Under the pieces are notes generated by a model that had not been told where the DNA came from, did not search any database, and worked only from the letters and a program-made list of their open reading frames with translations. Shown piece after piece: positions 1-13,295 of a DNA stretch of 13,295 nucleotides. The position numbers were made by a program, and so were the translations under genes. Source of the DNA: a virus; IMG/VR virus record IMGVR_UViG_3300045988_024822, positions 1-13,295 of that record. One strand, written 5' to 3'. The first letter of the stretch is position 1. Every line of letters starts with the position of its first letter.

Positions 1-55
1 AGTACCGCAATTTTTGCAATGTTTATAGCAACATATACAATATAACGTATGGTAT
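1..55. repeat. Left inverted terminal repeat (ITR). It is perfect over 55 bp and extends imperfectly to 62 bp. Presumed replication origin for protein-primed replication.
   Basis: Bases 1-55 (agtaccgcaatttttgcaatgtttatagcaacatatacaatataacgtatggtat) equal the reverse complement of 13241-13295. Position 56 mismatches (g vs a), 57-62 match again, and 63 mismatches. Confidence 0.97.
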
Positions 56-99
56 GCTATATGGATCCCGTGGTATCGCTATAGTGCCCCAGTAGTGGG

Positions 100-143
100 T
101 ACAAAATATAGTGCCCACTCCCCATAGGGTAGGGAGTGGGCAC
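100..143 (-). terminator. Rho-independent terminator ending the late operon, downstream of the tailspike gene
   Basis: Perfect 12-bp stem gtgcccactccc (111-122) / gggagtgggcac (132-143) with a 9-nt loop. On the minus strand it starts 14 nt after the tailspike stop codon and is followed by TATATTTTGT (110-101). Confidence 0.75.
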
Positions 144-157
144 AAGATACAATATAA

Positions 158-2428
158 TTATAGGCGAGTCGTGGTTAGTGTCGTCAAGTCACTTTCCTGG
201 TTCGACAGTTCGGTACCTGCTACTGCATTTCCTCCAATGATGTTGCGCAGGCCAGTTGAATCAAAGCGTATACCGGCCACGTAGAATAGTTCGGCAGAAG
301 GAGGGACAACCGAATTAAACAATACCCTATTATCGACACAGCCGTTAAGGAACGAAAAAGCAAATGCCTCTGTGAATTTTGTAGTGCGATGAACTATGTT
401 TTTTGTAATCTGACATGCGGAAGACTGCGATGCCGCGACACATTGATCCACATTGATAAACTGGCAATTATCAACAACGCACCCTCTCGCATACGACAGT
501 CGAACTCCTATGCAAGATTGCGTACCGATAAATTGGCAGTTGCTTATCACGCCAGAGGAGTTCTCAAATTCGACCAAACGGTCTTTTGCATTGAAATAGC
601 AACCATCAACAGTGATCTGGCTGCCTCCTGCATTTCTGACATACAGTCCGCGGGTGCACTGGTCCGCGACATAGCCAGTAATCCAGATATTCCATACGGT
701 GTGGCCGCTGCTTTTAGTGAAAATCTGGATAGCCGTTGACGCGCACGAGCATTCGCACTTATCAATGTAGACGTCGCGCATGTCATCGGAGTTGTACAGA
801 AGAAATTGTTGGCTGTCGCCCGTCAGATTGTTACAGCTACTGAGACAGTTATAGAATCTGATGGACGCATTGCCACTAATTCCTGAGACCCCGCCGCTTG
901 ATTCATCCAGAAGGAACGACGAATAGGGGTTAGCCGATGTATAAAAAGTGTCGTGAACAATATTTTTTGTATAGATGTTGATCGTGTTAATATAGCGAGC
1001 TACCCGTCGGCCTCCGATACAGTGGAGATTATCAATGGTGACACGTTCGGCATACTGAACATTGATAAACTCCAGCACATTTTCGGCGGTCGCCACAAAA
1101 GTAGCATTGCGAACAGACAACCGTTCCACATGAGCAGTATTGCTGCTACCCCTAATATTGATAACACCGTCTGGGCTGAAACTCACAACATTATTACAAA
1201 AATCATAAGTCGTGTGGGAGCTGGCCCCTACAGGCGCATTAATTTTATAAATTGTATCGGCTGTAAGAGTCCCTGCCGCGGCGCCCCAGTTACCGGCTGT
1301 GGGGAACTTGATTGTACCTGTAAAGGACTGAATTGAGCCCCCGCTGAACACATCTGCGATACTGGTGTCGATGAACCAATCTGCGATAGTCTCACCCGCT
1401 TTGACTGCAAATTTGCCGCCATTTTTCTGTCGGAAGTGCAGGGTGCAGGGGGCCACAGGATCACCAATCGTCAACATTACGCCCGACGCTACCACGATAG
1501 CTTTACTTGTCATGAGCGGCGATCCGATGTTAATTGCACCTGTGATAATGTACTCGCCGTCAGGAATAAACAGGTCTTTGCCGGATGCAATGGCGGTCGA
1601 GAACGCGATAGTGTCATCGGTAGTGCCGTCACCCTTGGCGCCGTAGCTTTTTACGTTAGCGTAGTCAAGGACGTTTTTAACATCCTGCTGTAGCTGGTCA
1701 ATACTGTTCTGAAGGTCGTTGTCGGCGTTCACTCTGGCCGATGTCTCTGCCTCAATGGCCGACTGAAGGCTGCTGTCAGCATCCTCCCGGGCCGTTTTCT
1801 CGTTGTTGATAGCCGTCTGGAGCTGCGTGTCTGCATTCTCCCGGGCCGTCTGCTCCGCCCCAATAGCCGTCTGAAGCTTGTTGTCTGCGTTCTCCCGGGC
1901 CGTCTGCTCGGCTCTCAAGCCCTCATTAAGCCTGGTAATAAGGTACTGCACAACTTCATTTGTGGAGCTGCTCACGCAGTTGGAGCCGGGCACATAGGCA
2001 TCGCCGGCGAGCATTGTTTTAGTGACACGCACCAGCGCCCCATTGACCCACACAAGATCGTCGACAGCTCTATTTTCTGTGGCGGTGGGGCTGTGTCCCT
2101 CATCGTTTGGAGTGATGGCTTTTTTCACATCGGCCCAGAGTTCGTCGAAATTGCCAATTTTTGTCCAAAACTCCGTACGGTCCAGAGAAACACCAGACGG
2201 CACCGGCTTCACAGACAGATATGCGTTGCCATTGCTATCCACTACAACGGTGTTTGCTTCATACTGGCTAGTAATGTTCCACTGGATGGGGTTCGCATAC
2301 TTGATAGTAGCCAGACTGACAAAGTTTGTCAGTTTGGTATTATACTCATTCAGCACCTCAATAATCCAATCAAGATTGAGGTCATGGAAATTTGTGTAGG
2401 GCGTTCTGTGAATAGGATTGATACTCAT
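158..2428 (-). CDS. Tailspike / pre-neck appendage-like receptor-binding protein with a pectate-lyase-type right-handed beta-helix (putative glycan depolymerase)
   Basis: 756-aa ORF with RBS AAGGAGA 7 nt upstream of the ATG at 2428. After the coiled coil comes NVKSYGAKGDGTTDDTIAFSTAI, the classic pectate_lyase_3 / tailspike beta-helix N-cap signature. This is followed by long Cys/Asn/Gly-rich repeats typical of beta-helix rungs. It is the last gene of the structural module, matching the phi29 gp12 role. Confidence 0.8.
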   Translation of the reverse strand: MSINPIHRTPYTNFHDLNLDWIIEVLNEYNTKLTNFVSLATIKYANPIQWNITSQYEANTVVVDSNGNAYLSVKPVPSGVSLDRTEFWTKIGNFDELWADVKKAITPNDEGHSPTATENRAVDDLVWVNGALVRVTKTMLAGDAYVPGSNCVSSSTNEVVQYLITRLNEGLRAEQTARENADNKLQTAIGAEQTARENADTQLQTAINNEKTAREDADSSLQSAIEAETSARVNADNDLQNSIDQLQQDVKNVLDYANVKSYGAKGDGTTDDTIAFSTAIASGKDLFIPDGEYIITGAINIGSPLMTSKAIVVASGVMLTIGDPVAPCTLHFRQKNGGKFAVKAGETIADWFIDTSIADVFSGGSIQSFTGTIKFPTAGNWGAAAGTLTADTIYKINAPVGASSHTTYDFCNNVVSFSPDGVINIRGSSNTAHVERLSVRNATFVATAENVLEFINVQYAERVTIDNLHCIGGRRVARYINTINIYTKNIVHDTFYTSANPYSSFLLDESSGGVSGISGNASIRFYNCLSSCNNLTGDSQQFLLYNSDDMRDVYIDKCECSCASTAIQIFTKSSGHTVWNIWITGYVADQCTRGLYVRNAGGSQITVDGCYFNAKDRLVEFENSSGVISNCQFIGTQSCIGVRLSYARGCVVDNCQFINVDQCVAASQSSACQITKNIVHRTTKFTEAFAFSFLNGCVDNRVLFNSVVPPSAELFYVAGIRFDSTGLRNIIGGNAVAGTELSNQESDLTTLTTTRL
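1698..1914. repeat. Four degenerate tandem 54-bp units encoding an 18-aa repeat (A-E-Q-T-A-R-E-N-A-D-x-x-L-Q-T-A-I-x) in the tailspike neck
   Basis: The core tctcccgggccgtctgctc recurs at about 1840-1858 and 1891-1909, with a diverged copy at about 1783-1800. The protein reads RAEQTARENADNKLQTAIG / AEQTARENADTQLQTAINN / EKTAREDADSSLQSAIEA / ETSARVNADNDLQNSIDQ. Confidence 0.85.
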
Positions 2429-2440
2429 AACTACATCTCC

Positions 2441-3130
2441 TTAATAAACCAGCAAACAGAAGTTTGCCCGGATGTCCGTAACGATTTTATGAACGGCATT
2501 TTCCATTGCAAGGGCCAACTCTTTGGAAATGAGGTCTTGCGGGTCACGCCCTGCCCGGCCCTTCTCGGTCACGGTGTCGTTATAGCCGTCGTGTAACTCC
2601 GAGGTGTTGTTATCGGTTGTCGTCTGATCGGTGGTGGTCGTGTCCGTGCCGCTGCTGGTAATGGTGTTCCCAGTACCGAGGGCCGTTGTGCTCCGTTCAG
2701 CGGTTTGCAAGGATCCACTGTCGAAGCCCGTAACGTCCCGGGTGGTGCTGTCACTGCCGGTATTCTGGCCAGTCGTGGTCAGGTTCGGCGTGCGGGTCGT
2801 CGATCCCTTCCTGCCGTTAGTGCGGTTGATTGTGCCGCCGCTAGTTCCTGCATGGTCGGTTGTTCTGGTTCGGGCATCGGACGCCAAAGCGTCGTATTCA
2901 AGGCCCAGGGCCTCAGTGTACCGGGACCAGCTCGGGAGCATGGTTTCAGAAAAGACCCCTAGCGCCCGGCGCATTGTCGGGCCGTCCGCATATAGCACCT
3001 CAAATTCCAGTGTATCAAACAGTAATTGATTGCAGACAGTTTCTTTAGAGACACTGCTAGGAACTTTCAAGTCATCGAACAGTTCCGGGTATCCTGCCAA
3101 TAGGCCGTTAAAGCTCAATGTTGCGTGCAT
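2441..3130 (-). CDS. Putative lower collar / tail tube protein (phi29 gp11 position)
   Basis: 229-aa ORF with RBS GGAGGTG 7 nt upstream of the ATG at 3130. It overlaps the portal gene 3' end by 23 nt and sits immediately downstream of the portal, as in phi29 (10 then 11). The central ~100 aa is Thr/Ser/Gly/Asn-rich. The call is positional; I recognise no diagnostic motif. Confidence 0.5.
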   Translation of the reverse strand: MHATLSFNGLLAGYPELFDDLKVPSSVSKETVCNQLLFDTLEFEVLYADGPTMRRALGVFSETMLPSWSRYTEALGLEYDALASDARTRTTDHAGTSGGTINRTNGRKGSTTRTPNLTTTGQNTGSDSTTRDVTGFDSGSLQTAERSTTALGTGNTITSSGTDTTTTDQTTTDNNTSELHDGYNDTVTEKGRAGRDPQDLISKELALAMENAVHKIVTDIRANFCLLVY

Positions 3131-4049
3131 CGTTGTTCACCTCCTGTGTAGTAGTATCGGGCGGAAACCTCCAATCGACCCACAAAGTAGACTTATCAAT
3201 TCCAAACAGTTTGTGAACCCGTTCGCAACCCTGTTGCAAGCTATCCAACCAGAGCGACGCCTTAGCGGCTGTCTCGACGTTGTTCGAGTTGACTTCGTCG
3301 GTCAACATCCGCTCTTTCTTGCTGGTATTAGTGTTCGGTATGCCGACTTCTGTGTCGAACAGCGCTTTAATGGTTTTAAGAGCGGATAGCAGTTCGTTGG
3401 TTATGAAGTTCCCTTTGAGGTCAGTTGCAAAATACATCCACGGGGCTTGCCCGGATGGCCCATTCTTGGGCGCTTTGAGCAAAGAGGCATCAACAAAAAC
3501 GGCAGGGTCACCCTGCATAATCGCGTCAAACATCTTTTTAAAAGATTCTGCACCCGCTTTGTTGCCGGACGCAAACACGTAGGCAAGGCGGCTATTGATT
3601 AAATTGCTCTGGATGGTCTGGGCGGCAAGGGCCATCATATCCCCATAGTAGGCCACAATATCCACCATCCCACGGTAATCGGGTTGCAAATTGATGATCT
3701 CGCATTGTTTTCCGATTTGCAAATATGGGGACCCTTTAATAAAAGGGTTAGCAATGATGGAGTGGGTGGGATTGTAGAAAATGTTAATGCCGGTAAGTCC
3801 CATTCGGTCATACACGAGGCCGTAACGGTCAGTATTGAACACCGTAACACCGCCGGAACCAAAAACAAGATACTGCAAGCGGTTACTGGGCCATGTTTCG
3901 GGCAAGGTCCACCGTACCATAGACACGGCCTCAAGGAACAGATATTTGCGGAAATAATAGGACAGGCTGTTGCCCTTTGTGTGCATCACGGAGGGAGTCA
4001 CCGGCGACACATGGGCGTTGATCTGTTCGTAGCTGTAGGGAGCACTCAC
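3108..4049 (-). CDS. Portal (head-tail connector / upper collar), phi29 gp10-like
   Basis: 313 aa, similar in size to phi29 gp10 (about 309 aa). The segment IPNTNTSKKERMLTDEVNSNNVE...CERVHKLFG parallels phi29 gp10 [23 protein letters not shown]...CEKINELYG (recalled from memory). GTG start at 4049 with GGGAGG 9 nt upstream; its start overlaps the M23 stop codon as GTGA. Confidence 0.9.
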   Translation of the reverse strand: MSAPYSYEQINAHVSPVTPSVMHTKGNSLSYYFRKYLFLEAVSMVRWTLPETWPSNRLQYLVFGSGGVTVFNTDRYGLVYDRMGLTGINIFYNPTHSIIANPFIKGSPYLQIGKQCEIINLQPDYRGMVDIVAYYGDMMALAAQTIQSNLINSRLAYVFASGNKAGAESFKKMFDAIMQGDPAVFVDASLLKAPKNGPSGQAPWMYFATDLKGNFITNELLSALKTIKALFDTEVGIPNTNTSKKERMLTDEVNSNNVETAAKASLWLDSLQQGCERVHKLFGIDKSTLWVDWRFPPDTTTQEVNNDARNIEL

Positions 4050-4633
4050 AACAGACGACCTCCCTTCGCCATTTTAAACAGCAACCATACCGGCAATTTG
4101 CCAGTAGGCCACGGCCCGGGACCAGGGTCAGGACCCGGCCCGGGACCAGGGTCAGGACCCGGCCCGGGACCAGGGTCAGGGCCTCCACCCGAGTCCCACT
4201 CTACGTTCCACGTGCCCACCTGATTCGGGATTCTGATAATGCTGGACGGGTCCCGCAGGTTTCCGGCCGCATCGGCATACTCCCAATGTGTGTGAATGCC
4301 CGTGACGTAGCCGGTTTGTCCCTGTGTGCCGATGAACTGCCCCTTGGAGATCGTGTCGCCCACGTTCCAGATCTGTGAGGCAAAGTGTGCGGCCCGCCAT
4401 GTAGTGCCGTCGGCCATCCGTACCTTAATCATATTGCCCCACGACTGATCGCCCGAGGTGCTGCCGTTCCAGTGCTGGGCCACTACCACAACGCCCGCCT
4501 CGGGCGCATAGGCTTTATGATTGCCGTGGACTGTGTCAATGCCCCTGTGATGGCTACCGTCCGCGTATGCCGGATAACCGGCGGTGACTCTGATCGGCGA
4601 CACGTCAGTAATACACTGTTTATATACTGCCAT
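4046..4633 (-). CDS. Peptidase M23 (LytM-type) peptidoglycan endopeptidase with a C-terminal Pro-Gly-Asp repeat linker and a short amphipathic tail. Probably virion-associated, analogous to the phi29 gp13 C-terminal domain.
   Basis: 195 aa. M23 metal-binding motifs HxxxD (HRGID) and HxH (HTHWE) are present in the expected order. Then comes GGGPDPGPGPGPDPGPGPGPDPGPGP, ending with WPTGKLPVWLLFKMAKGGRLL. RBS GGAGG lies 9 nt upstream of the ATG at 4633. Confidence 0.9.
   Translation of the reverse strand: MAVYKQCITDVSPIRVTAGYPAYADGSHHRGIDTVHGNHKAYAPEAGVVVVAQHWNGSTSGDQSWGNMIKVRMADGTTWRAAHFASQIWNVGDTISKGQFIGTQGQTGYVTGIHTHWEYADAAGNLRDPSSIIRIPNQVGTWNVEWDSGGGPDPGPGPGPDPGPGPGPDPGPGPWPTGKLPVWLLFKMAKGGRLL
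4113..4183. repeat. Perfect 24-bp tandem repeat, about 2.9 copies (unit ggcccgggaccagggtcaggaccc), encoding the (PDPGPGPG)n linker of the M23 peptidase
   Basis: Units at 4113-4136 and 4137-4160 are identical. A third copy at 4161-4180 is identical for 20 nt before diverging. Confidence 0.95.
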
Positions 4634-4646
4634 CGTTATACGCCTC

Positions 4647-6062
4647 CTACTCTAAAAAGAATCCATTTTTCATATAACTTTTAACGCTGTCAATCTCGGC
4701 GGCTGTTGCGGCCAACTCAATGTCGGGGTCATCTACCATAATGAATCCCGGGATACTGAACAGCTGCACGCGCTGGCAAAGGGGCCTGCCATGGTCCTCG
4801 TTGTTGTCGTCTGCAAGATCATAAAACGCCCCCGTTAAATATGGCCTTATTCCATATTTGGCAACGCTCGCCCCTCCGCCCTTGGATTGACTTGCAACGG
4901 TCATCTGCTGGGCACCAGATGCAATACCGTTAGTAACATCGCCCCCGCCAAAAAAGGATTCAATACCGCCAGCGATAGCACCAACTGCGGTTTGAATCAG
5001 TCCACCCACACTTGCCAATTCATTTACATTGGTTGCGATCTGCGACAGCTGCACAGGTACCGAGACGTTGCCCGACGTGGAGAAGAAAATAGTATTGAAA
5101 TCATGATTAAATGACAAGTCCAGTATCGCGTCGCCGGTGCGGTAATCAACAGTCAATCTACAATACAACGTGCTTTGCAACACAAACAGGTTAGCATTTA
5201 ATTTAATTTCCCCAAATGGAGGACAATATAATGTATACTCGGAATAGGGTGCTCCGTCTGTATAGACGCCCCTTGTAATGTGCTGCGGATGATGTGGGGT
5301 GGAGATGCTGAACGTAAATATTTGTTTGTCGTTCTGACTCTGGATAACATAGGCGTTGCCGATATTCGGCATTTTCCACCAACCGACGGGAATTTCATGG
5401 ATGGGGGTGCCGATTGCCGTATTGCCGCAGGGTATCCAAAACGCCTTTGAAATATACTGAATAGGATTGAACAGCGCTTTAGTTAAGTTGCTGCTGATTT
5501 CGTCCGCGCTGATATTCAGATAATCCGTATTTTGCAAAAGGGCCTCCATGAGCTTTTGAAATGTTGTGCCGCTCATTGCAAGATAAATTGCCCCGCCAAA
5601 AGACACATACCCAGGAGCGATGACTGCCACAACAAAAAATCCTTGACTGCCACTTTCCGGGTTATCCGTGAACGGCGTTGAATTTGCATAGAGGGTTCTC
5701 GTGGTAATCGTTGCTTTGGTCGGGTACAAATTATCTACGATTTTAGGGTCATACTTGGCAGAGGACCTCACCACATACTCGGTAGAGGATCCGATCTGGT
5801 CGCGGTAGCTTGCGAGAGTGTCAACAGTCAGTGACGCATTCCAGAGCCCGTCAGAATATGTCCAGTTCTTAACCCAGTAGTATCGGCTGAACGCGGGAAG
5901 GTAGCAATAATTGAATCTGGTGGGGTCGCTCTGGGTTTCGATCTTGATCTCGGGGTCAATGATATTGCAAGGGGCTTTAAGGTTGATTCCGAATTCCTGC
6001 CCACCGCCGGGCCGCTTTGTGCTGTTTGTGCGTTTTGCAAACTGATAAAATGTAGCTTGCAT
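4647..6062 (-). CDS. Tail knob / distal tail tube protein, phi29 gp9-like
   Basis: 471 aa with RBS GGAGGTG 6 nt upstream of the ATG at 6062. The N-terminal pattern FYQFAKRTNSTKRP...NYCYLPAFSRYYWVKNW...LTVDTLASY resembles the N-terminal domain of knob proteins of small podophages (phi29 gp9 has ...WFYAFVTELEF...EIDVLQTW). There is a Gly/Ala-rich hydrophobic segment near the C-terminus. It directly follows the capsid gene, as gp9 does apart from the head fibre. Confidence 0.65.
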   Translation of the reverse strand: MQATFYQFAKRTNSTKRPGGGQEFGINLKAPCNIIDPEIKIETQSDPTRFNYCYLPAFSRYYWVKNWTYSDGLWNASLTVDTLASYRDQIGSSTEYVVRSSAKYDPKIVDNLYPTKATITTRTLYANSTPFTDNPESGSQGFFVVAVIAPGYVSFGGAIYLAMSGTTFQKLMEALLQNTDYLNISADEISSNLTKALFNPIQYISKAFWIPCGNTAIGTPIHEIPVGWWKMPNIGNAYVIQSQNDKQIFTFSISTPHHPQHITRGVYTDGAPYSEYTLYCPPFGEIKLNANLFVLQSTLYCRLTVDYRTGDAILDLSFNHDFNTIFFSTSGNVSVPVQLSQIATNVNELASVGGLIQTAVGAIAGGIESFFGGGDVTNGIASGAQQMTVASQSKGGGASVAKYGIRPYLTGAFYDLADDNNEDHGRPLCQRVQLFSIPGFIMVDDPDIELAATAAEIDSVKSYMKNGFFLE

Positions 6063-6073
6063 TTTGCACCTCC

Positions 6074-6105
6074 TATAAAATAACCGGCGGGCAATGCCCG
6101 CCGGT
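6074..6105 (-). terminator. Rho-independent terminator or attenuator directly after the major capsid gene
   Basis: 9-10 bp GC stem accggcgggc / gcccgccggt (6083-6105). It starts 5 nt after the MCP stop codon (6111-6113) and is followed on the minus strand by TATTTTATA, then the RBS of the next gene. Confidence 0.75.
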
Positions 6106-6110
6106 ATTGG

Positions 6111-7385
6111 TCAGGACTTAGAGGGGTCCGCGTCCTTATATGTGGTGGTTTTCAGGGTGGACGCTCTTGCCGCCTTGGCATCGCTCGGGGTGGTGACGTC
6201 TCCAGAGGTCATCAGGAACAGAACTGCGTTCTCGGTGAAGTCATCGTACCACGACCATCCGTAGTGATACCAGAAGTTCGTATACAGTCCGCGGGCGTTC
6301 ATGGGGGTAGGGACGACGCGGGACAGCTTCGGAGTGTAGCCGATTGCATCCCAGTCCAGCAGACAACCAAACACATTCGACAGTTGCACCGCTGCATTCT
6401 TGGTTGCCACCCCGGCGGTATTGGTCACAACAGGCGTTGCGGAAATGGTCTCGCGCTGGTTGATGTTCTGCCAGAACGTTACCTGCTCGGCGTCGCGGTA
6501 TTTCAGCATGTTGTCATGGAATACCTCGGGAATCACGCGGGCGTCGATCTGGCTCTGCGTGCCGCTGTACAGATAGAGGTGCTGACGATCATACGGAGTG
6601 TGCCGCATGATGTTGTACGTCGTGTCGCCGATCTTCCAGTTTTGATGCCAGTTGATAGACCGCTCTTTCATAAGGCGGGAAATGTCGTTGATACGGCCAT
6701 AGGCGTACTTTGCAAAACCCGGGAAATTCGCTTCTTTGTAGACGTCCTGCACCGTCAGGTTAGTGCCCTGCTGGGCGTTGTACTCATCGAGCAGATACAC
6801 AACGCTGTGCGGGTTGGTCACAGTCATACCGGTCAAATGATTGGCCATCAGGTTGTTGGCCAGATTGCGCCGGTCAGCCTCGATCTGGTTCGACAGATGC
6901 AGCACGAACGAAGACCAGAACTGCGCCAGTTCCTCGGGCCCCTTGAATGCTGCCTCCATCTGGGTATCAGCTTGCGTGTACACGCGGCTGTAATTGGTCT
7001 GGCCGTAGTAGTTTGTCTGGAGGACTTTAGGCTTGTGGACTTCGTACATGTCCACGCTCTGGCCGTCCTCCAGCTCCCACGCCTTATCGATGACGGGGTC
7101 GCTGTCGCAAAAATTGATCTTCCGCACATGGTTGGACCAGTCATCGCCCGTCACCTGCAAGCGTTTCAGCGGGGCATCGTAGGGGCGGACGGCAAAAATG
7201 GTACGTCCCAGCACCTGGCTAATCGCTTTAGTGTAGTTGTCGGGGCCGGTCAGCAACGTGGCCTGCGCAAGAGACACAAAGCTAGACGTGTCCACGATGG
7301 GGGACGTCGGATCCTGACCAGTGGCCACCTTATTGATCTCAGTCAAAATTGCGGCAATGTCCGCAAAATCCATACCAAGAGGCAT
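6111..7385 (-). CDS. Major capsid protein, phi29 gp8-like (HK97 fold)
   Basis: 424 aa. The C-terminal segment NARGLYTNFWYHYGWSWYDDFTENAVLF parallels phi29 gp8 [28 protein letters not shown] (from memory). It lies immediately downstream of a small helical scaffold-like gene, and its ATG sits 1 nt after the scaffold stop codon. Confidence 0.9.
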   Translation of the reverse strand: MPLGMDFADIAAILTEINKVATGQDPTSPIVDTSSFVSLAQATLLTGPDNYTKAISQVLGRTIFAVRPYDAPLKRLQVTGDDWSNHVRKINFCDSDPVIDKAWELEDGQSVDMYEVHKPKVLQTNYYGQTNYSRVYTQADTQMEAAFKGPEELAQFWSSFVLHLSNQIEADRRNLANNLMANHLTGMTVTNPHSVVYLLDEYNAQQGTNLTVQDVYKEANFPGFAKYAYGRINDISRLMKERSINWHQNWKIGDTTYNIMRHTPYDRQHLYLYSGTQSQIDARVIPEVFHDNMLKYRDAEQVTFWQNINQRETISATPVVTNTAGVATKNAAVQLSNVFGCLLDWDAIGYTPKLSRVVPTPMNARGLYTNFWYHYGWSWYDDFTENAVLFLMTSGDVTTPSDAKAARASTLKTTTYKDADPSKS

Positions 7386-7386
7386 A

Positions 7387-7683
7387 TCACTTCACTTCCT
7401 TTCCATAGGTTGGGTCAATAATTCGGGCCGTCACCGTGGCGGCATCTGCCGTCGGCTGCTGCTGGATGCCAAGGCCCAGCGCGTTCGCCTGCAACGTCTG
7501 CGTCATGGTCTGCATTGCCTGCGCAGTAGTCTGCTGACCCTGCAAAAGCTGCTGCAGCAGGGTCTCAAGGCCATCGTACTGCTGCGGCGCGGGCTGCGGC
7601 GCGGGCTGCGGCTTCTCCATCGCTTCAATTTCTGCTTTGGTGTATCCGGCCCTAGCGAGGGCCACCTTTTCACTGATTTTCAA
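7387..7683 (-). CDS. Putative scaffolding protein (phi29 gp7 position and size)
   Basis: 98 aa, Gln/Ala/Leu-rich and predicted helical (LETLLQQLLQGQQTTAQAMQTMTQTLQANALG). It lies directly upstream of the MCP. TTG start at 7683 with GGAGG 9 nt upstream. The start is uncertain because an in-frame GTG lies 6 codons downstream. Confidence 0.55.
   Translation of the reverse strand: MKISEKVALARAGYTKAEIEAMEKPQPAPQPAPQQYDGLETLLQQLLQGQQTTAQAMQTMTQTLQANALGLGIQQQPTADAATVTARIIDPTYGKEVK
7582..7612. repeat. 12-bp tandem repeat (ctgcggcgcggg, about 2.5 copies) encoding PQPAPQPAPQ in the scaffold-like protein
   Basis: Direct reading shows ctgcggcgcggg at 7582-7593 and at 7594-7605, then a partial third copy. 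Confidence 0.8.
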
Positions 7684-7903: not shown

Positions 7904-7906
7904 AAG

Positions 7907-8065
7907 TTAGCTCTCCTTCTTAATATCGTCCAGAGCGAGCCTCATTTCGGTGATAGCCGCGGTATTCTCCTTGACCACGGTATTGCACTGATACCACATC
8001 AGCAGAAACGCGGCAATGGGAAAACCAACGTTAGAAATAGCCTGAATTACAATATTAGCATCCAT
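7907..8065 (-). CDS. Small single-pass membrane protein, holin-like (BhlA/UviB-type architecture)
   Basis: 52 aa: MDANIVIQAISNVGFPIAAFLLMWYQCNTVVKENTAAITEMRLALDDIKKES. It has one N-terminal hydrophobic helix followed by a charged helical tail. RBS AGGGAGGTG is upstream of the ATG at 8065. It falls below the ORF-track length cutoff and forms the 3' part of the spurious 170-aa ORF 7907-8419. Confidence 0.5.
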   Translation of the reverse strand: MDANIVIQAISNVGFPIAAFLLMWYQCNTVVKENTAAITEMRLALDDIKKES

Positions 8066-8094
8066 TTTATGCACCTCCCTTACAGATACAAGTA

Positions 8095-8164
8095 AATCCT
8101 CGGTTCTTGCGCTGGCTGACGCTTGCCCGCCCCTTCTGGGGGCTGCCTGTGGGCACCGAGGATT
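8095..8164 (-). other. 70-nt structured RNA element (closing 10-bp helix plus internal GC helices) at the 5' end of the predicted late transcript
   Basis: On the minus strand, AAUCCUCGGU (8164-8155) pairs perfectly with ACCGAGGAUU (8104-8095). Inside are gcccc-cagaa-ggggc, flanked by gccc/gggc with a 7-nt bulge, and a weak gcg/cgc hairpin. No ORF is present. It lies between the -10 box and the holin RBS. Confidence 0.5.
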
Positions 8165-8170
8165 ATCTTT

Positions 8171-8199
8171 AGTATATATCCTCTGTGTAAAAAAGTCAA
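8171..8199 (-). promoter_or_regulatory. Near-consensus sigma-A/sigma-70 promoter (TTGACT, 17-nt spacer, TATACT); candidate late promoter
   Basis: On the minus strand the -35 box TTGACT is at 8199-8194 and overlaps the ATPase stop codon. The spacer is exactly 17 nt and the -10 box TATACT is at 8176-8171. It lies in the largest intergenic gap on the coding strand. Confidence 0.65.
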
Positions 8200-9257
8200 G
8201 TACCGCAATACTCGCGAAAGAAAATTTCATCCGAGTATCGCTCAAATTCAATTTGCCGCTGCAAGTATGCGGGCCAGATGTACCCATACGCGGCCCTAAA
8301 CCGTTTCCGCTCATAGTCGCCGGTGCCATAGAGGGGCATCTCGCCAGACCTGTGACGGCATACATAGTATAGTGGTTTGCTCTTGTGCTCATAGATGCAG
8401 CAACGCCCAATTTGTACAAGCGGATAGTATTCCCGGAGGGGCCGGGACACTACCAAGCTCTTTTCTTCGGCACTGTACTGGTTCTCGATAGCTGATCTGT
8501 AAAAATCTGTGCCGGTCATGGACCTATAGAGGGCCGTATTTGCTTTCTCTTTTGCAATAGGGCTGTCCACAAGATCAATCAACAGAATGCCCTTGTCGGC
8601 CAACAGCTTGACGCGCTCTTTTTTGCCGATCATCTTTTCGACGGTATCAGTAATCTCCCATTGCATATAATAGGGGTTGGCCATGCCCACCGCGTTCGAC
8701 ATACACAAAAGCGTCAAGGGCTTTTGCCCCTTTAATTCGCGGTTACGGTTGACCGTTTCATAAATATTAGCAAGGCCCACGCCCTCGCCTCGCCGGTAGT
8801 AGTCGGACTCCTCTTTCTGGTATTCATCCAAAATAATGATGCTAGTGTGAGGACTTGAAAAACCACGGGTGCGAGCAAGAGTTACGACGCTCCCCACAAC
8901 TCCTGCCATTTGGGCCGGTTTTATGGGAGATCCTGTATCAGTGTAGGCCCCCGCGTTACCCACTTCATAGAAACCGGCGATTTTAGGTATTTTAAACGGG
9001 GCGTAATGTGTTTGTAGATCATCGTTCAACGGAGACCATGGCCACATACTGGGCGACGCACAAATAAGTTCCGCTTGCTGCGGCGTGCGGCGCAGATACA
9101 GAAATTCATCCCCGGTCTGATGGACGTGCTTTAGCGCTCCGTATGTCTTGCCGGTCCCGCGTCCGCCCCATATAAAAATAATGGGCGCCCCTGTTGACAA
9201 AATGCCGTCCTTTTCGGAAAAGTTCGGCCATCCATCATCGGTATAAAGTTTAATCAT
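8196..9257 (-). CDS. DNA packaging (encapsidation) ATPase, phi29 gp16-like
   Basis: 353 aa. Walker A is GGRGTGKT and Walker B is SIIILDE. FLYLRRTPQQ and MSNAVGMANPYY parallel phi29 gp16 GARGIGKS / FIYVRRYKPE / IVFDEF / LSNAVSVVNPYF (from memory). The ATG shares base 9257 with the polymerase TGA, and GGAGG lies 7 nt upstream. Confidence 0.9.
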   Translation of the reverse strand: MIKLYTDDGWPNFSEKDGILSTGAPIIFIWGGRGTGKTYGALKHVHQTGDEFLYLRRTPQQAELICASPSMWPWSPLNDDLQTHYAPFKIPKIAGFYEVGNAGAYTDTGSPIKPAQMAGVVGSVVTLARTRGFSSPHTSIIILDEYQKEESDYYRRGEGVGLANIYETVNRNRELKGQKPLTLLCMSNAVGMANPYYMQWEITDTVEKMIGKKERVKLLADKGILLIDLVDSPIAKEKANTALYRSMTGTDFYRSAIENQYSAEEKSLVVSRPLREYYPLVQIGRCCIYEHKSKPLYYVCRHRSGEMPLYGTGDYERKRFRAAYGYIWPAYLQRQIEFERYSDEIFFREYCGT

Positions 9258-11347
9258 CAGATAACCTCCATAATCTTGTACCCAAGTATCTTTGCGTATT
9301 CGTCGGTGATGCCTAACGTGTAGGTGTTATCACAGATGCACAGGTTTCTTGTGATGTGTACCGTATGCCCGTCAACCACAAAATCGGGCACCGTGGGGCG
9401 GTCATTATAAATAACCTGATTTCCGGCGGCAAGACAAAACGTGAACCCGGGCTTGAATACCTCAAAACCACCCCACAGGGTCAGCTCTAATCCGCCTTTC
9501 CGCTTGCTGACTCCTGCTATAGTGGTAGTGATCGGCCCGCCTTTTTTATAAGTAGTCGCGTATTTTTTAGCGCCCCACGTCATAAACTCCGCATAGCTGC
9601 GCTCCTGCTCATACACGCCCATATAATGAGTGTTGCCTTTGGGGTCAGTGGCACAAGCGCCGTTGTCTTTTGCGAGCTGCTTTACGGCTTTGTTAAAGTC
9701 CGACAAATCAATATTACCCATATATTTGACACTGTCGGTGTCGCAGTACACGCCATTTTTGCCCGCGGCCCACTGCGCTATTTTTAGGCGCTTGCGAGTG
9801 TGGGCAGTAGTCCATACTCCCCATTGGTAGGGCAAAAACAGATTGGGGCGGTGGTCGTTATAACTGCCCTCTGGATCGTCGGTGCATTCGCTCCACAGAT
9901 TGTCGGGGTCGTCCTCGTCAAAAAGTGTATCCAGCTGCAAGGGATCCTGCGCTGTCATACCGTAGTAGCTGTTAAGATCGCCCTTGGCTTTGACATAATA
10001 CAAATCTTGACCGGCTACACCTTTAAGGGATGTCTTGCCGGTATAGCTTTCTTTTACACAATCCGTCAACGGTTTAGGCAATTTACCATAATCGGACGTA
10101 TAAAGCTCCAAGACATTGAGAGCGTCCCACTCATATTCTTTGGCAATGATTCTAAAATCTATATCTGTTATCGTGATCTCCAAATGATCAGCAGACAACA
10201 AACGGCCATTGTCGTTAATGTATCCTTCACAGTGCCGGACCTTTGCAAGGGGGATATAGGGAAATCCCCACCACTTGAATCGCTGTCGTAAACCTTTTAC
10301 TTGCAAGCGCATGAGGCACGCCTTGCCGTGTCTCATACATTGCATCAGCCGCTCGACGGTGGATGGCTCCTGCCTAAATGGAGTCATAGGGAAATAGCAT
10401 TCACATTGTACGGCGGGGTACGCGCTTGACATATCCACGGATCCGACGTTTTCCAGATGGAGCCCAACATAATATCGGTTGGCATGGGTGTCACCGCCTC
10501 GGAATGCCTCACGCAGCATTTGATACAATTCCCACGACGGCAGTAAACGCTTGACCCGTTTAATGCCCCATTTGTACATCGCCTCACGGGCCATTCGTCG
10601 GACGTACCCAGTGCGCGTCAATGGTAATGTATAGAGGTCGTCGCCGTCTCGCTGCATCTCAATTAACAGACACTCTACAATACACCTAACATCATTGATA
10701 CAATACGCTAATTCTGTAGATGTTAAGGGCGTCCAAGGATACCGCACTTTTGAATAGTCAAGAGCACCCGTTAATTTGGCATGAGGGGCGCCCAGCTGCT
10801 TGCCCCAAGCATCAAGGGACAAGTTGCTGTGTCTCATACTGCACCTGTATTCAATCGCGCGGTTGTCGCATTTTAATACCCTGCGGGGCTTGCTGGCAAA
10901 CACATCGCCCGGGCCGAAATCCAGAACCCCCGACAAATATTGGAATTCGTGAGCCAAATTGTGAACGTACATGCACAGATACCAGTCACCCTGTGGGCCA
11001 CTGTTGGCTTGCAAATAGTCGCTGATTGTGTTTGTAAAATATAACCATTCATCCCATGTTCTGCCAATAATAGTGGCATCCAAACCTAACTGACACTGCC
11101 AGATGTACATAATGGTGTGGGGGTTGTCGTCGGCGTCAACACACACTCGGCTGGTCTCAATATCAAACGCACACGGCATACCCACATACAATCGGTTTTT
11201 GCGTGTTTTGCGCTTTTTGCCTTTGGTGTGCTTCCTGTCTAAGTGCTCCATGAGCCAGGGGACTGGATTGTAATTACAAGCCTCCTCCAAAACCTCCGCG
11301 CAAGTCGGCAGAGCTGCTCCCCTCGCTATAGTCCCACTCTTTGCCAT
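9257..11347 (-). CDS. Protein-primed family-B DNA polymerase (phi29 gp2-like)
   Basis: Exo I is FDIETS, Exo II is YVHNLAHEF and Exo III is YCINDVRCI. Pol motif A is DMSSAYP, motif B is KGDLNSYYG, motif C is YCDTDS and the KxY motif is KKYAT. All occur in canonical order and closely resemble phi29 YFHNLKFD / YIKNDIQII / DVNSLYP / KLMLNSLYG / YCDTDS. The start is set at the ATG at 11347 (GGTGAGG 6 nt upstream). The ORF is open back to a GTG at 11359, and an ATG at 11251 is an alternative. Confidence 0.95.
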   Translation of the reverse strand: MAKSGTIARGAALPTCAEVLEEACNYNPVPWLMEHLDRKHTKGKKRKTRKNRLYVGMPCAFDIETSRVCVDADDNPHTIMYIWQCQLGLDATIIGRTWDEWLYFTNTISDYLQANSGPQGDWYLCMYVHNLAHEFQYLSGVLDFGPGDVFASKPRRVLKCDNRAIEYRCSMRHSNLSLDAWGKQLGAPHAKLTGALDYSKVRYPWTPLTSTELAYCINDVRCIVECLLIEMQRDGDDLYTLPLTRTGYVRRMAREAMYKWGIKRVKRLLPSWELYQMLREAFRGGDTHANRYYVGLHLENVGSVDMSSAYPAVQCECYFPMTPFRQEPSTVERLMQCMRHGKACLMRLQVKGLRQRFKWWGFPYIPLAKVRHCEGYINDNGRLLSADHLEITITDIDFRIIAKEYEWDALNVLELYTSDYGKLPKPLTDCVKESYTGKTSLKGVAGQDLYYVKAKGDLNSYYGMTAQDPLQLDTLFDEDDPDNLWSECTDDPEGSYNDHRPNLFLPYQWGVWTTAHTRKRLKIAQWAAGKNGVYCDTDSVKYMGNIDLSDFNKAVKQLAKDNGACATDPKGNTHYMGVYEQERSYAEFMTWGAKKYATTYKKGGPITTTIAGVSKRKGGLELTLWGGFEVFKPGFTFCLAAGNQVIYNDRPTVPDFVVDGHTVHITRNLCICDNTYTLGITDEYAKILGYKIMEVI

Positions 11348-11873
11348 AGTTGACCTCACCTTGCAGCCACTTTACAAAATCGTCAATACTGACGTTGTAG
11401 CCGCCTTTCTCGCGCCAGTACATGACCGGCTGATCAGACGGATAGTAATACACGCCCGATGCCTTCACGATATCCCACCATTCAGATAGGACCGTATATT
11501 GATCTTTGGGAACGTCGGTTATATCAATACCGCCGACTTTCATTTTTTGCTCAAATTCTGCACGCGCACCACCAACGGTGGAGCCCTTGGAACGAACAAA
11601 CCGCGCTACATCCGCCAAAGCCTGCTCCACTGCTTTGCGATCTCCACGCATCGCCTTTAGAGTTGGGAACCCTCCGGCAAATTCTTTATAAACGTCGCTT
11701 GTCCCGCTGATCGGGTCTTTCGATAAGCGCTTAATGCGTTTTTGCGCAATGTCGCGAAGTCGGGAATACTCTTTGCGCATTTGATTATCGGGCCAAGACT
11801 CCAAGGCATAAGGGGTGTACAGCTCGGAGCTGTATTTAAGGGTCGCGCTTGCTTTAGCTGCGCCTACTGCCAT
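11274..11873 (-). CDS. Candidate terminal protein (primer for DNA replication)
   Basis: 199 aa, immediately upstream of and overlapping the pPolB gene, which is the invariant phi29 gene 3 to gene 2 arrangement. The basic helical segment RKEYSRLRDIAQKRIKRLSK resembles phi29 TP KAEYARLVKNTKAKIARTKK. The acidic C-terminal segment KEWDYSEGSSSAD resembles the phi29 TP priming-Ser232 context EEFDSEGNT (from memory). Confidence 0.6.
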   Translation of the reverse strand: MAVGAAKASATLKYSSELYTPYALESWPDNQMRKEYSRLRDIAQKRIKRLSKDPISGTSDVYKEFAGGFPTLKAMRGDRKAVEQALADVARFVRSKGSTVGGARAEFEQKMKVGGIDITDVPKDQYTVLSEWWDIVKASGVYYYPSDQPVMYWREKGGYNVSIDDFVKWLQGEVNYGKEWDYSEGSSSADLRGGFGGGL

Positions 11874-12084
11874 GCTTCATCCGCTCCTTTCTATTCATAA
11901 TCATATAATACCAGTGGAGGGGGTCCTCTTCAATGCCAAGGCCGCTAAAAATGATTTTGGCCCATTCAGAACGGAAAAAATCAACGTCTTTGTCGGTGAC
12001 TCCACTGTATACAAGGACAGAGGCAAGACATATCATGGAGTCGTCGTAATTCAACAAGGATACTCTGTTATCTCTACTTTTCAT
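11854..12084 (-). CDS. Hypothetical early protein, 76 aa
   Basis: ATG at 12084 with AAAGGAGG 4-5 nt upstream. Its 3' end overlaps the TP start by 20 nt. The ORF-track version (91 aa, start at 12129) begins inside a GC palindrome and has no RBS. Confidence 0.55.
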   Translation of the reverse strand: MKSRDNRVSLLNYDDSMICLASVLVYSGVTDKDVDFFRSEWAKIIFSGLGIEEDPLHWYYMIMNRKERMKHGSRRS

Positions 12085-12093
12085 GGGGCCTCC

Positions 12094-12129
12094 TTTAACA
12101 AATATGGCCGCCGCATGTGCGGCGGCCAT
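12094..12129 (-). terminator. GC-rich perfect palindrome; candidate intrinsic terminator or attenuator between the SSB-like gene and the replication genes
   Basis: atggccgccgca-tg-tgcggcggccat (12104-12129), an 11-12 bp stem. It starts 8 nt after the SSB-like stop codon and is followed on the minus strand by ATTTGTTAAA, which is only a modest U-tract. Confidence 0.5.
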
Positions 12130-12137
12130 TGGTTAGA

Positions 12138-12572
12138 TTAAACCAGATTCAAAGACAAAACCTGACCTTTTTTAGTGCTAATAAGCACAGGTTTGATCTT
12201 CACCGGCTCCGTCCACGTGTCAGGGGTTCCAAGCAGCGTAAACATACGCTTCAGAGACTGATACACACCGACGGAGACGCAGGCGTAAGACTGCCCGTCC
12301 TCGGTAATGAGGACGACACGCGGGGCAATCGTTTTGCCCTCCGGGACGTCCTCCTTGCTGACCTCGACGCACTCCACAGAAACATGTACCAGCGACAGAA
12401 CCTCATTGACATGCTCCTTCAGTTTGTTGGCAGGGTTGCTCGTTGCATTGTAGAATGCAACCGCGGCAGAGCGGTCAGAAAGATTCATATCGGTATACCC
12501 GACGCCGGTGTTCATCACGTCGGACACCATCATAGCACCATTGTTCTCGGCCTTCATCATTGTTTCGGACAT
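12138..12572 (-). CDS. Putative phage single-stranded DNA-binding protein (Firmicute-phage SSB type)
   Basis: 144 aa from the ATG at 12572 (AAAGGAG 8 nt upstream). The C-terminal pattern APRVVLITEDGQSYACVSVGVYQSLKRMFTLLGTPDTWTEPVKIKPVLISTKKGQVLSLNLV matches my recollection of lactococcal/clostridial phage SSB family proteins. Its position upstream of TP and polymerase mirrors phi29 gene 5. Confidence 0.5.
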   Translation of the reverse strand: MSETMMKAENNGAMMVSDVMNTGVGYTDMNLSDRSAAVAFYNATSNPANKLKEHVNEVLSLVHVSVECVEVSKEDVPEGKTIAPRVVLITEDGQSYACVSVGVYQSLKRMFTLLGTPDTWTEPVKIKPVLISTKKGQVLSLNLV

Positions 12573-12611
12573 AATACAAACTCCTTTCAGTATGTGCCCT
12601 GTCATTATCAA

Positions 12612-12683
12612 TACCGGGCGGGCGGTCCCGGTAGACGGCCCGGAGGCCGTTTCGACTTACAATTTTTTACACCCGTTAGGGTG
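12612..12683 (-). other. Cluster of three short GC-rich hairpins in the 79-nt intergenic region between ORF116 and the SSB-like gene
   Basis: taccggg/cccggta (12612-12633, 8-nt loop), acggcc/ggccgt (12635-12650, 4-nt loop) and caccc/gggtg (12670-12683, 4-nt loop). None is followed by a convincing U-tract on the coding strand. Confidence 0.4.
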
Positions 12684-12690
12684 ATCTATG

Positions 12691-13041
12691 TTACCGCCTT
12701 CCCATATCGCAGCAGGAACTGCCATAATCGCAACAGCTCCCACAGTCGGGGTTCTTGCGTCTGGGGCCTCCGGCGACATCTTTGCAATACTTCTGATACA
12801 TTTCTGCGGCCCCATCCCGTACAAAGGCTGCGCCCTGATACATTAAACTTGCCGCTGCACTGTCGCCTTTAATGCCTTCAAGCGCTTCGACTTGCTCGGC
12901 GCAGTGCTTGAGCGCTTGCCGATACCCGGCTAGCCATGTGCTATCATTTGAGGCTCGGATTGTGTCCTCGGGATCCTCATACTCGCAGCACGTCATCGTG
13001 CCGTTGGGGTGTATCTCGATGATGAATTTACGCATTTCCAT
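12691..13041 (-). CDS. Hypothetical early protein, 116 aa, with a Cys-rich C-terminal tail
   Basis: ATG at 13041 with GGGAGA 7 nt upstream. It ends ...KNPDCGSCCDYGSSCCDMGRR, with a duplicated S-C-C-D-[Y/M]-G unit. There is also a CC pair near the N-terminus (TMTCCEYED). Confidence 0.65.
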   Translation of the reverse strand: MEMRKFIIEIHPNGTMTCCEYEDPEDTIRASNDSTWLAGYRQALKHCAEQVEALEGIKGDSAAASLMYQGAAFVRDGAAEMYQKYCKDVAGGPRRKNPDCGSCCDYGSSCCDMGRR

Positions 13042-13057
13042 TCGTGGGTCTCCCTTC

Positions 13058-13201
13058 CTATATAATATTCAGAATCTTGGCAAGACTACAAAGCATTGTA
13101 ATACTGCTGATAATATCATTATCTGTTAAATCAGTGAGATTCTCACCGTCAAGAGTGATATTAGCATCGGTTACAGTAATTTTAATGACGACGTCTTTCA
13201 C
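13058..13201 (-). CDS. Hypothetical small protein, 47 aa; first gene after the right ITR
   Basis: GTG start at 13201 with GGAGG 8 nt upstream. The sequence is VKDVVIKITVTDANITLDGENLTDLTDNDIISSITMLCSLAKILNII. The stop codon lies 17 nt before the next ATG. It is short and uses a non-ATG start, so the call is tentative. Confidence 0.4.
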   Translation of the reverse strand: MKDVVIKITVTDANITLDGENLTDLTDNDIISSITMLCSLAKILNII

Positions 13202-13237
13202 CTGTATCACCTCCTTCGCGGTTCGTTCTTTATATAT

Positions 13238-13282
13238 AGTATACCATACGTTATATTGTATATGTTGCTATAAACATTGCAA
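13238..13282 (-). promoter_or_regulatory. Candidate early promoter(s) at the inner edge of the right ITR
   Basis: On the minus strand there is an extended -10 element TGgTATACT (13246-13238). There is also TTGCAA, 16-nt spacer, TACAAT (13282-13277 and 13260-13255). Both lie upstream of the first RBS. Confidence 0.45.
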
Positions 13283-13295
13283 AAATTGCGGTACT
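13241..13295. repeat. Right inverted terminal repeat (perfect 55 bp; imperfect extension back to 13234)
   Basis: This is the reverse complement of 1-55. Confidence 0.97.

Follow-up and report, generated by a model that had tools for sequence, protein, structure and literature searches.

A viral contig of 13,295 nucleotides (nt) deposited in IMG/VR (record IMGVR_UViG_3300045988_024822, positions 1 to 13,295; this whole stretch is here referred to as the window) very probably belongs to an uncultured and presumably virulent phi29-like podophage of the human gut and covers about 98% of that phage's linear, double-stranded DNA genome. According to our reconstruction, the genome would span approximately 13.6 kb and carry inverted terminal repeats (ITRs) of approximately 200 bp, of which the window retains the inner part. 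The most interesting element of the window is a conserved hammerhead motif in the early operon; hammerheads as such are known, and the setting is what is new. An earlier note, made from the letters of the sequence, had described a small phi29-like podophage with a linear, ITR-bearing genome, and this description is supported by the repeat and by the gene set identified with profile hidden Markov models (HMMs). The note had also proposed that the genome was complete and formed a near-minimal, seemingly novel lineage, and neither proposal could be upheld.

Terminal repeats

At its two extremities, the window carries inverted copies of one sequence (bases 1-62 and 13234-13295) that share 55 perfect bases, differ at base 56, and match again over the following 6 bases. 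By searching for contigs that encode exactly the 116-amino-acid (aa) protein of the window, we identified a Logan contig from run ERR321649 (L103), which overlaps the window over 1,196 nt with 0 mismatches and runs 140 nt past base 13295 at the early end. This extension (AATAGCAGATTGCACAAAA...CCCATAGGGTAGGGG) is homologous to the inverted repeat present at both contig ends of close relatives, in which the ITR measures 111 nt (L070), 110 nt (L096), 106 nt (L069), 105 nt (L034), 157 nt (L059), and 154 nt (L052). The sequence matching the window terminus (AGTAnnGCAATTTTTGCAATG) starts approximately 107 to 115 nt inside the relatives' contigs at the early end, behind the conserved ITR. Since the identical strain continues beyond base 13295 and the terminus-matching sequence is internal in relatives, the window is incomplete and its ITR is not 55 bp long. 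The perfect 55-bp repeat reported in the earlier note is real, but it constitutes the inner stub of an ITR of approximately 200 bp and not the genome end. Collectively, these data revealed inverted terminal repeats whose inner 62 nt lie in the window and whose outer part is found in L103 and at both ends of the relatives.

Among the contig ends of relatives, 18 accumulate at GGGACACGTAATAGC; two chimeric joins fall exactly there, and a Nextera adapter was joined to the sequence a few bases further in. The accumulation most likely reflects a physical DNA end. We estimate that about 140 to 150 nt are missing at each end of the window, which would bring the true ITR to about 200 to 210 nt and the genome to the size given above. 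Two more IMG/VR contigs, L027 and L082, follow the same pattern: their terminal repeats begin mid-ITR, are perfect over exactly 55 bases, and diverge from base 56 on. This points to a collapse of the ITR in a de Bruijn assembly with a largest k of 55, in which the body was emitted with k repeat bases per side. The assembler would collapse the identical outer parts of the ITR and output the unique body with 55 repeat bases on each side.

Alternatively, the window could be the whole genome of a new near-minimal tailed-phage lineage with a true 55-bp ITR. Both contig ends do coincide with the repeat, and the length of the window is close to that of its relatives. We nevertheless consider this very improbable, as a contig of the identical strain runs 140 nt further, dozens of relatives carry the homologous sequence inside their contigs, behind the conserved ITR, and the exact-55 pattern recurs in contigs cut within a longer ITR. 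The proposal of a new lineage is further contradicted by cultured phages of 11.6 to 12.3 kb and by hundreds of close database relatives.

Turning to the late end of our incomplete genome, an independent NCBI assembly contig (L102) ends 14 nt short of the window end and reproduces window bases 15-74, including the 62/63 junction and the variant base 56. The late-end copy is therefore not a mis-join. Exact searches of IMG/VR and JGI metagenomes for the late-end junction of the window found none, and exact-protein look-ups for this end returned short contigs only. The outer repeat of the window strain at the late end can be presumed from the 62-nt match and from the relatives. While the window ITR extends 62 nt further inward, into the promoter region, than that of most relatives, the ITRs of L052 and L059 run inward in the same way.

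The terminal regions (window 63-148; L103 1-140; the ends of L069 and L052) consist of degenerate copies of a 35- to 45-nt module (ACAAAATATAGTGCCCAC..CCCCATAGGGTAGGGG), and a diverged internal copy lies at window 100-135, inside the longer ITR. The module is tandemly duplicated in L069, and a 22-nt repeat is present in 2 versus 3 copies at the two ends of L052. Given these degenerate copies and differing copy numbers, the inner ITR boundary moves between strains, probably by copying from the other end.

Among the IMG/VR contigs, we also observed several end artefacts. The early ends of L011 and L014 carry chimeric joins exactly at GGGACACG, at the late end of L083 a Nextera adapter joins the sequence a few bases short of the terminus, and L005 (1-50 and 13530-13579) shows a 50-nt fold-back of tailspike sequence at both ends.

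Hammerhead motif

An Rfam scan of both strands of the window (E ≤ 1) returned, apart from a chance HepC_CRE match, only Hammerhead_II (RF02276), located upstream of the gene for the single-stranded DNA-binding protein (SSB). The match scored 34.2 bits against a gathering score of 37 (E value of 7.8e-4 for the whole window), and its lower score is due to the U3-A8 form of the core and an extra U after A9. Cleavage is predicted after C12634, which lies 62 nt ahead of the SSB start codon.

A homologous element exceeded the gathering score in 5 of the 10 relatives tested (40.6 to 45.1 bits), and a hammerhead was present at the same position in 85 of the 97 loci scanned, which included relatives L003-L098. 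Across 70 distinct sequences, 99.9% of the cells in the proposed structure are paired. Compensatory changes were found at the closing pair of stem I, 1.1-2.1 (UA in 60 sequences, CG in 10), and at the tertiary pair C3-G8 (UA in 46, CG in 12, UG in 11), and the 3 bp of the pseudoknot that links loop I to the 3′ tail are paired in all 70. The three stems, core, covariation, and pseudoknot of a type II hammerhead are thus all present, and the window copy departs from the class in its score. Among nine more distant relatives, which included Amedibacillus phage AD70P3, Salmonella phage Astrid, Acinetobacter phage Phanie, and Clostridium phage HM2, no hammerhead reached the gathering score.

Type II hammerheads with a pseudoknot between loop I and the 3′ tail, frequent in phage and prophage transcripts, were described by Perreault et al. 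in 2011 (PMC3088659); U3-A8 variants are natural and active, and a role in cutting long phage transcripts was proposed. The window element resembles these ribozymes in its open stem II and closed stems I and III, its GAAA and UGAU core elements with C17 before stem I, the pseudoknot of loop I with the tail 3′ of stem II, the replacement of C3-G8 by U3-A8, and its intergenic site within a long phage transcript. It differs from them in the extra U between A9 and G10.1, which is present in the window and most relatives, and from the RF02276 members in that the window copy remains 2.8 bits under the gathering score. In the library searched, we found no literature linking hammerheads with phi29-like phages, which amounts to absence of evidence only. 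The window element is predicted to self-cleave, and it would then cut the early transcript between two variable accessory genes and the block encoding SSB, terminal protein, polymerase, and ATPase.

Gene content and transcription

Sixteen open reading frames (ORFs) tile the minus strand of the window, which has a GC content of 50.8%, and cover 95.5% of it with gaps of at most 130 nt (Table 1). Where a full-length match exists, these ORFs are intact in 96 to 100% of the 63 non-identical relatives tested, while plus-strand ORFs of at least 100 aa are interrupted in most of them. The earlier description of 16 genes on one strand is therefore right, and with all conserved genes on the minus strand there is no opposite-strand operon. 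We did not accept the plus-strand ORFs as genes, since most of the relatives tested have them disrupted; the same applies to a 385-aa ORF antisense to the capsid gene. From the ATPase gene on, the genes run in the order ATPase, holin, 77-aa ORF, scaffold, capsid, knob-like protein, M23 peptidase, portal, collar, and spike; the order of structural genes listed in the earlier note was wrong, as M23 lies between the knob-like and portal genes and the ATPase and holin genes precede the scaffold.

Table 1. Features of the window, ordered by position (minus sign, complementary strand)
Feature	Position	Strand	Basis or remark
Late-end inverted-repeat copy	1..62		Mismatch at position 56; contig cut within ITR
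Strong terminator hairpin, 14 pairs (143-111)	100..148	-	After tailspike gene
Tailspike, 756 aa	158..2428	-	PF12708 E = 9e-10, PF05048 E = 1e-6; phrog_17212, phrog_4775
Lower-collar candidate, 229 aa, Thr/Ser-rich middle	2441..3130	-	Position directly after portal
Portal/upper collar connector, phi29 gp10 type	3108..4049	-	PF05352 E = 6.4e-16; phrog_2038 E = 2.9e-26
M23 metallopeptidase	4046..4633	-	PF01551 E = 3.7e-13; phrog_7767 E = 8e-17
Tail-knob-like protein, 471 aa	4647..6062	-	Position of phi29 gp9; predicted-fold matches
Terminator-like hairpin, 10 pairs then T run	6083..6105	-	After capsid gene
Major capsid protein, phi29 gp8 type	6111..7385	-	PF25622 (Phi29_MCP) E = 2.1e-16; phrog_2006 E = 8e-9
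Scaffold candidate, 98 aa, Gln/Ala-rich	7387..7683	-	Position directly upstream of capsid gene and composition
ORF, 77 aa	7670..7903	-	Intact in 63/63 relatives
Holin-like protein, 52 aa	7907..8065	-	phrog_4898 E = 3.7e-6; ribosome-binding site AGGGAGGTG
Candidate late promoter TTGACT-17 nt-TATACT	8171..8199	-	130-nt gap after ATPase gene; consensus match
gp16-type DNA packaging ATPase	8196..9257	-	PF05894 E = 4.7e-15; phrog_2150 E = 1.3e-24
Protein-primed-type family B DNA polymerase	9257..11347	-	Likely ATG at 11347; ORF open from 11359
Terminal-protein candidate, 199 aa	11274..11873	-	Directly upstream of polymerase
ORF, 91 aa	11854..12129	-	Occupies position of phi29 gene 4
Terminator-like hairpin, 11 pairs	12104..12129	-	Just after SSB gene; overlaps start of next ORF
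SSB, phi29 p5 type, 144 aa	12138..12572	-	ATG at 12572; PF17427, phrog_6243
Type II hammerhead ribozyme (predicted)	12593..12657	-	RF02276; between 116-aa ORF and SSB gene
Early ORF, 116 aa, Cys-rich C-terminus	12691..13041	-	Variable accessory gene
Early ORF, 47 aa	13058..13201	-	GTG start after GGAGGTG ribosome-binding site; same gene call in L103
Early-end inverted-repeat copy	13234..13295		Inner 62 nt of longer ITR; true terminus estimated ~140-150 nt further out
Candidate early extended -10 element TGGTATACT	13246-13238	-	Consensus match; conserved in relatives
Candidate early promoter TTGCAA-16 nt-TACAAT	13282-13255	-	Consensus match; conserved in relatives

The replication genes include a polymerase of the protein-primed family B (pPolB), which was recognized by PF03175 (34.6 bits, above the cut-off of 25.8), phrog_1907 (E = 4e-42), and the phi29 polymerase structure 1XHX (E = 3.4e-7). 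Its exonuclease and polymerase motifs (FDIET, HNLAHEF, YCIND, DMSSAYP, KGDLNSYYG, YCDTDS, and KKY) are present, as is found among the broad phi29-like podophages. The SSB matched PF17427 (E = 9.3e-9) and phrog_6243 (E = 4e-19), and the same 144-aa gene call was made in L103. These results corroborate the assignments of both proteins in the earlier note. No HMM match was obtained in Pfam and PHROG profile searches for the 47-aa and 116-aa early ORFs or for the 91-aa and 77-aa ORFs; the 91-aa ORF is intact in 45 of its 47 full-length matches among relatives.

The 199-aa product is the candidate for the terminal protein (TP). In family alignments, a basic helix (EYxRLRDIAQKRIKRL) is conserved and Ser146, the candidate linking residue, hardly varies. 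The family comprises 2,179 representatives (50% clustering, E ≤ 0.001) with a typical length of 170 to 260 aa, and hhalign related the window protein to the gene upstream of the Astrid polymerase (probability of 97.3%, E = 2e-11), the gene at this position in the Astrid group having been called a p3 counterpart in a review (PMC11476376). The candidate itself had no Pfam, PHROG, or PDB match, and scans of two sets of diverse TP-like family members (28 and 40) with Pfam and PHROG pointed to no consistent family. When its model (pLDDT of 74) was compared with PDB folds, no match had an E value below 2, and the phi29 TP was not recovered. Since similarity to the phi29 TP is not detectable, the TP role is best regarded as putative, and protein priming itself as presumptive; the candidate named in the earlier note thus gained gene order and remote homology to the Astrid gene in its favor, but no match to phi29 p3.

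Among the head genes, the gp16-type ATPase, gp8-type capsid, and gp10-type portal all scored above the Pfam cut-offs (PF05894, PF25622, and PF05352), and HMM profiles bore out these three earlier assignments along with the M23 hydrolase, the tailspike, and the holin-like protein. We recognized no head-fibre gene in the window, as had been stated. No significant HMM match was found for the scaffold candidate, and no HMM or PDB match for the lower-collar candidate. In a sequence search, the top list for the latter contained only relatives of more than 90% identity and gave no link to phi29 gp11, and tblastn against phages retrieved members of the same phage group only. Both roles, which the earlier note had also proposed, fit the gene positions and are deduced from them.

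For the 471-aa knob-like protein, no HMM or PDB sequence match was obtained, and a fold search of its model against the PDB yielded none at E ≤ 0.001, with short matches of the tail-tube or neck type at E = 0.1 to 0.4. In BFVD, the AF2 model (pLDDT of 62) matched a "Major tail protein" of virus sp. ctK6s94 (E = 1.7e-9) and a 568-aa protein of Astrid (E = 9e-6), which appears, by size and gene order, to be the main knob part in the review (PMC11476376). The gp9-like assignment is therefore compatible with gene position and these model-based matches, but not backed by sequence profiles.

The M23 peptidase has the HxxxD and HxH motifs and a Pro/Gly/Asp repeat linker, and is the sole recognizable wall hydrolase of the window, in line with the earlier statement that a separate endolysin is missing. 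Within its gene (window 4106-4183), three in-frame 24-nt tandem units encode the PGPGPD linker. The tailspike consists of an N-terminal part resembling pre-neck appendage proteins, three 54-nt coiled-coil repeats, and a pectate-lyase/NosD beta-helix; the repeats (window 1708-1910) are in frame and specify a segment of the AEQTARENADxxLQTAI type. A full-length tailspike match exists in only 30 of 62 relatives (mean identity of 67%), and a full-length homologue of the 116-aa early gene in only 6 of 62, while the replication and head genes are 92 to 97% identical. Judged by this comparison, the parts swapped among relatives are the accessory early genes and the receptor-binding protein.

These tail and lysis genes also bear on a possible dependence on a helper phage. 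Phanie, a mini-phage, can infect only with the tail that an unrelated myophage supplies, and by polymerase identity (32 to 35%) Phanie and the Astrithrvirus group rank among the cultured phages closest to the window. It has also been suggested that helper dependence may extend more widely within that group (PMC11476376). The window, in contrast, encodes its own 756-aa tailspike, in which an appendage-like N-terminus is combined with a lyase beta-helix. It also encodes one full-length knob-like protein where the Astrid group has a split knob, as well as an M23 lysin and a holin, and these genes make helper dependence improbable.

Both early promoter-like sites identified by the consensus scan sit at the inner edge of the repeat. 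The sole mismatch of the repeat (window 56/13240) falls within the −10 hexamer of the extended −10 site, which reads TATACT in the early copy and TATGCT in the late-end copy, so the promoter copy that faces inward at the late end may be weaker. The promoter sites are consensus matches, and their use is presumed. All genes are read in one direction, and the early unit would start at the promoters at the inner edge of the repeat, while a second promoter after the ATPase gene, where the scan gave a strong consensus site, would drive the genes for holin, scaffold, capsid, knob, M23, portal, lower collar, and tailspike. Transcripts would end at the terminator hairpins that follow the SSB, capsid, and tailspike genes. 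The terminator after the tailspike gene is embedded in the diverged internal copy of the inner ITR module known from relatives. The 11-bp, GC-rich hairpin that follows the SSB gene (12104-12129) contains the ATG of the 91-aa ORF, which suggests attenuation or coupling between the two genes.

Relatives and abundance

A search of public databases revealed that the phage belongs to a densely populated group. A GenBank record from human faeces (MT836263.1; 13,058 bp) is 88.6% identical over 94% of the window, and at least 184 IMG/VR contigs encode a relative of its polymerase. Among 80 IMG/VR relatives that were fetched, most measure 12.7 to 13.9 kb, their polymerases are 94 to 97% identical, and the best show approximately 87% nucleotide identity over 99% of the window. 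The protein clusters of the group contain thousands of member sequences in public runs. Species are usually delimited at 95% nucleotide identity, and the closest relatives of the window lie below this line. By this measure, the window is a distinct species-level variant of a very common, heavily sampled gut phage genus.

The gut contigs of the same group, such as MT836263.1 and IMG/VR 3300045988_044983 (L054), share the gene order, single-strand layout, terminal sequences, and hammerhead position of the window, with approximately 87 to 88% nucleotide identity over 98 to 99% of its length; in many of them, the 116-aa early gene and the tailspike differ. Their records carry no annotation or classification. 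Many phi29-like phages of 12 to 14 kb from human metagenomes have already been reviewed (PMC11476376, 2024), and metagenomic genomes of 6.9 to 10 kb with an HK97 fold have been reported (bioRxiv 10.1101/2025.06.18.659913). Together with the cultured relatives of 11.6 to 12.3 kb, these smaller genomes contradict the earlier designation as a near-minimal lineage, and the abundance of relatives contradicts its implied novelty. In a more distant 13.7-kb relative (L106, MT836587.1; polymerase 32% identical), we observed a tRNA gene at 8491-8563. Unlike it, the window and its close relatives have no tRNA gene.

Two contigs of whole-genome length were binned in bacterial metagenome-assembled genomes (MAGs), one of Collinsella (L097, CALDWI010000036.1) and one of Prevotella (L098, CAAGKM010000040.1). 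As the two placements are mutually inconsistent, they are probably binning artefacts and not evidence of a host. They could be taken to indicate that the window is a piece of a larger replicon, i.e., a prophage, a linear plasmid, or a mobile element carrying pPolB, and pPolB genes and ITRs do occur in linear plasmids and other mobile elements as well. The MAG contigs, however, stand alone at 13.2 to 13.5 kb, nearly all of the approximately 80 fetched relatives are no longer than 14.3 kb, with the full-length ones sharing the same ends, and the window carries a complete head, tail, and lysis module. Profile searches of the window proteins revealed no integrase or host flank. We therefore regard an origin from a larger replicon as extremely improbable and consider the window a phage genome in its own right, presumably with a lytic lifestyle.

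Discussion

Our results indicated that the window is a nearly complete genome of a small phi29-like gut podophage whose ITR was truncated during assembly. Several observations weigh against parts of this reconstruction. The value k=55 is deduced from the pattern of the repeats, and the outer 140 nt were seen only at the early end of the window strain. The TP candidate lacks detectable sequence or fold similarity to phi29 p3, and the hammerhead of the window scores below the gathering threshold with a core that is off consensus at two positions. The host inference from bins is contradictory, pointing to both Collinsella and Prevotella. Finally, no prohead RNA (pRNA) was found in the Rfam scan of both strands, for which the presence of a pRNA model in that Rfam copy was not checked. 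The Rfam pRNA family is narrow and not known to reach beyond the pRNAs of Bacillus phages, and the window may thus harbor a divergent one.

In the proposed replication cycle, the terminal protein would prime DNA synthesis at both genome ends, the phi29-type family B polymerase would extend the primer, and the phi29-type SSB would coat the displaced strand. Unit-length DNA would then be packaged by the gp16-type ATPase through the gp10-type portal. It is conceivable that, in this common gut phage genus, a working hammerhead in the early operon sets the stability or dosage of the replication mRNA and that the gp16 motor operates without pRNA, a combination that we put forward tentatively and consider rather doubtful. 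If true, it would amount to ribozyme-based mRNA processing, which has not been described for phi29-like phages, and the apparent lack of pRNA in the genus would imply a gp16 packaging motor that works without an RNA ring.

As a genome, the window is one further species-level variant in a genus of small phi29-like gut phages that has been sampled heavily, and its direct impact is small. With respect to method, a terminal inverted repeat that spans exactly k bases and is broken by a mismatch at the very next base signals an assembler-collapsed ITR, and contigs with an exact-k terminal repeat should not be counted as complete; at least two IMG/VR contigs of the group display this pattern. Furthermore, in this group a compact, conserved hammerhead occupies a constant site within a simple operon and shows natural C3-G8, U3-A8, and U3-G8 variation; the group also provides a large, unannotated family of candidate terminal proteins of approximately 200 aa in which one serine hardly varies.

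The closest cultured phages are the Amedibacillus phages AD70P2 and AD70P3 (12.2 to 12.3 kb; Guelinviridae in NCBI), whose polymerases are 36% identical to that of the window, compared with 34% for the polymerase of Clostridium phage HM2; the knob-like protein shows 22% identity. Like the window, AD70P2 and AD70P3 have a small genome with nearly all genes on one strand, an early gene of approximately 200 aa followed by the polymerase gene, and late genes for capsid, knob-like protein, portal, a protein at the lower-collar position, and spike. Unlike the window, they carry three small genes between polymerase and ATPase and three small opposite-strand genes at one end, their GC content is 26.7%, and AD70P3 lacks a hammerhead at the gathering score. 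Their approximately 200-aa gene is weakly linked to the TP-like family of the window (hhalign probability of 50%).

The Astrithrvirus group (11.6 to 11.9 kb), with Salmonella phage Astrid (11.7 kb) and Acinetobacter phage Phanie (11.9 kb), shares with the window the early gene of approximately 200 aa, whose product is homologous to the TP candidate, the polymerase, the gp16-type ATPase, and long ITRs. Repeats of 80 to 170 bp are normal in the wider group (83 bp in Astrid, 171 bp in Phanie, and 143 nt in MT836115.1). Besides the divergent polymerase, the group differs from the window in having the portal before the capsid gene, a knob split into two genes, a CHAP or amidase lysin instead of M23, and a small opposite-strand gene cluster. 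Its hosts are Gram-negative bacteria, and Phanie depends on its helper phage.

Bacillus phage phi29 has a 19.3-kb genome whose ITR is 6 bp long and whose early and late units diverge, and it encodes a pRNA of 174 nt (PMC11476376). The window shares with it the protein-primed-type polymerase, the p5-type SSB, the gp16 ATPase, the gp8-type capsid, and the gp10-type portal, together with the local gene orders SSB, small gene, TP position, polymerase and scaffold, capsid, knob, portal, collar, appendage. It differs in its estimated genome size of approximately 13.6 kb and ITR of approximately 200 bp, its single transcription direction, the lack of a pRNA match, of a head fibre, and of a separate lysozyme-type endolysin, and the presence of the hammerhead; its polymerase is approximately 23% identical to that of a phi29-group phage. 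Salasmaviridae are characterized by a pRNA, an ITR of 6 to 8 bp, and divergent early and late units, whereas the ITR of the window spans at least 62 nt, or approximately 200 nt with L103. As a pRNA is undetected, the ITR is long, and transcription runs in one direction, we do not place the window in the Salasmaviridae; it fits the broad phi29-like protein-primed podophages, i.e., the former Picovirinae and allies.

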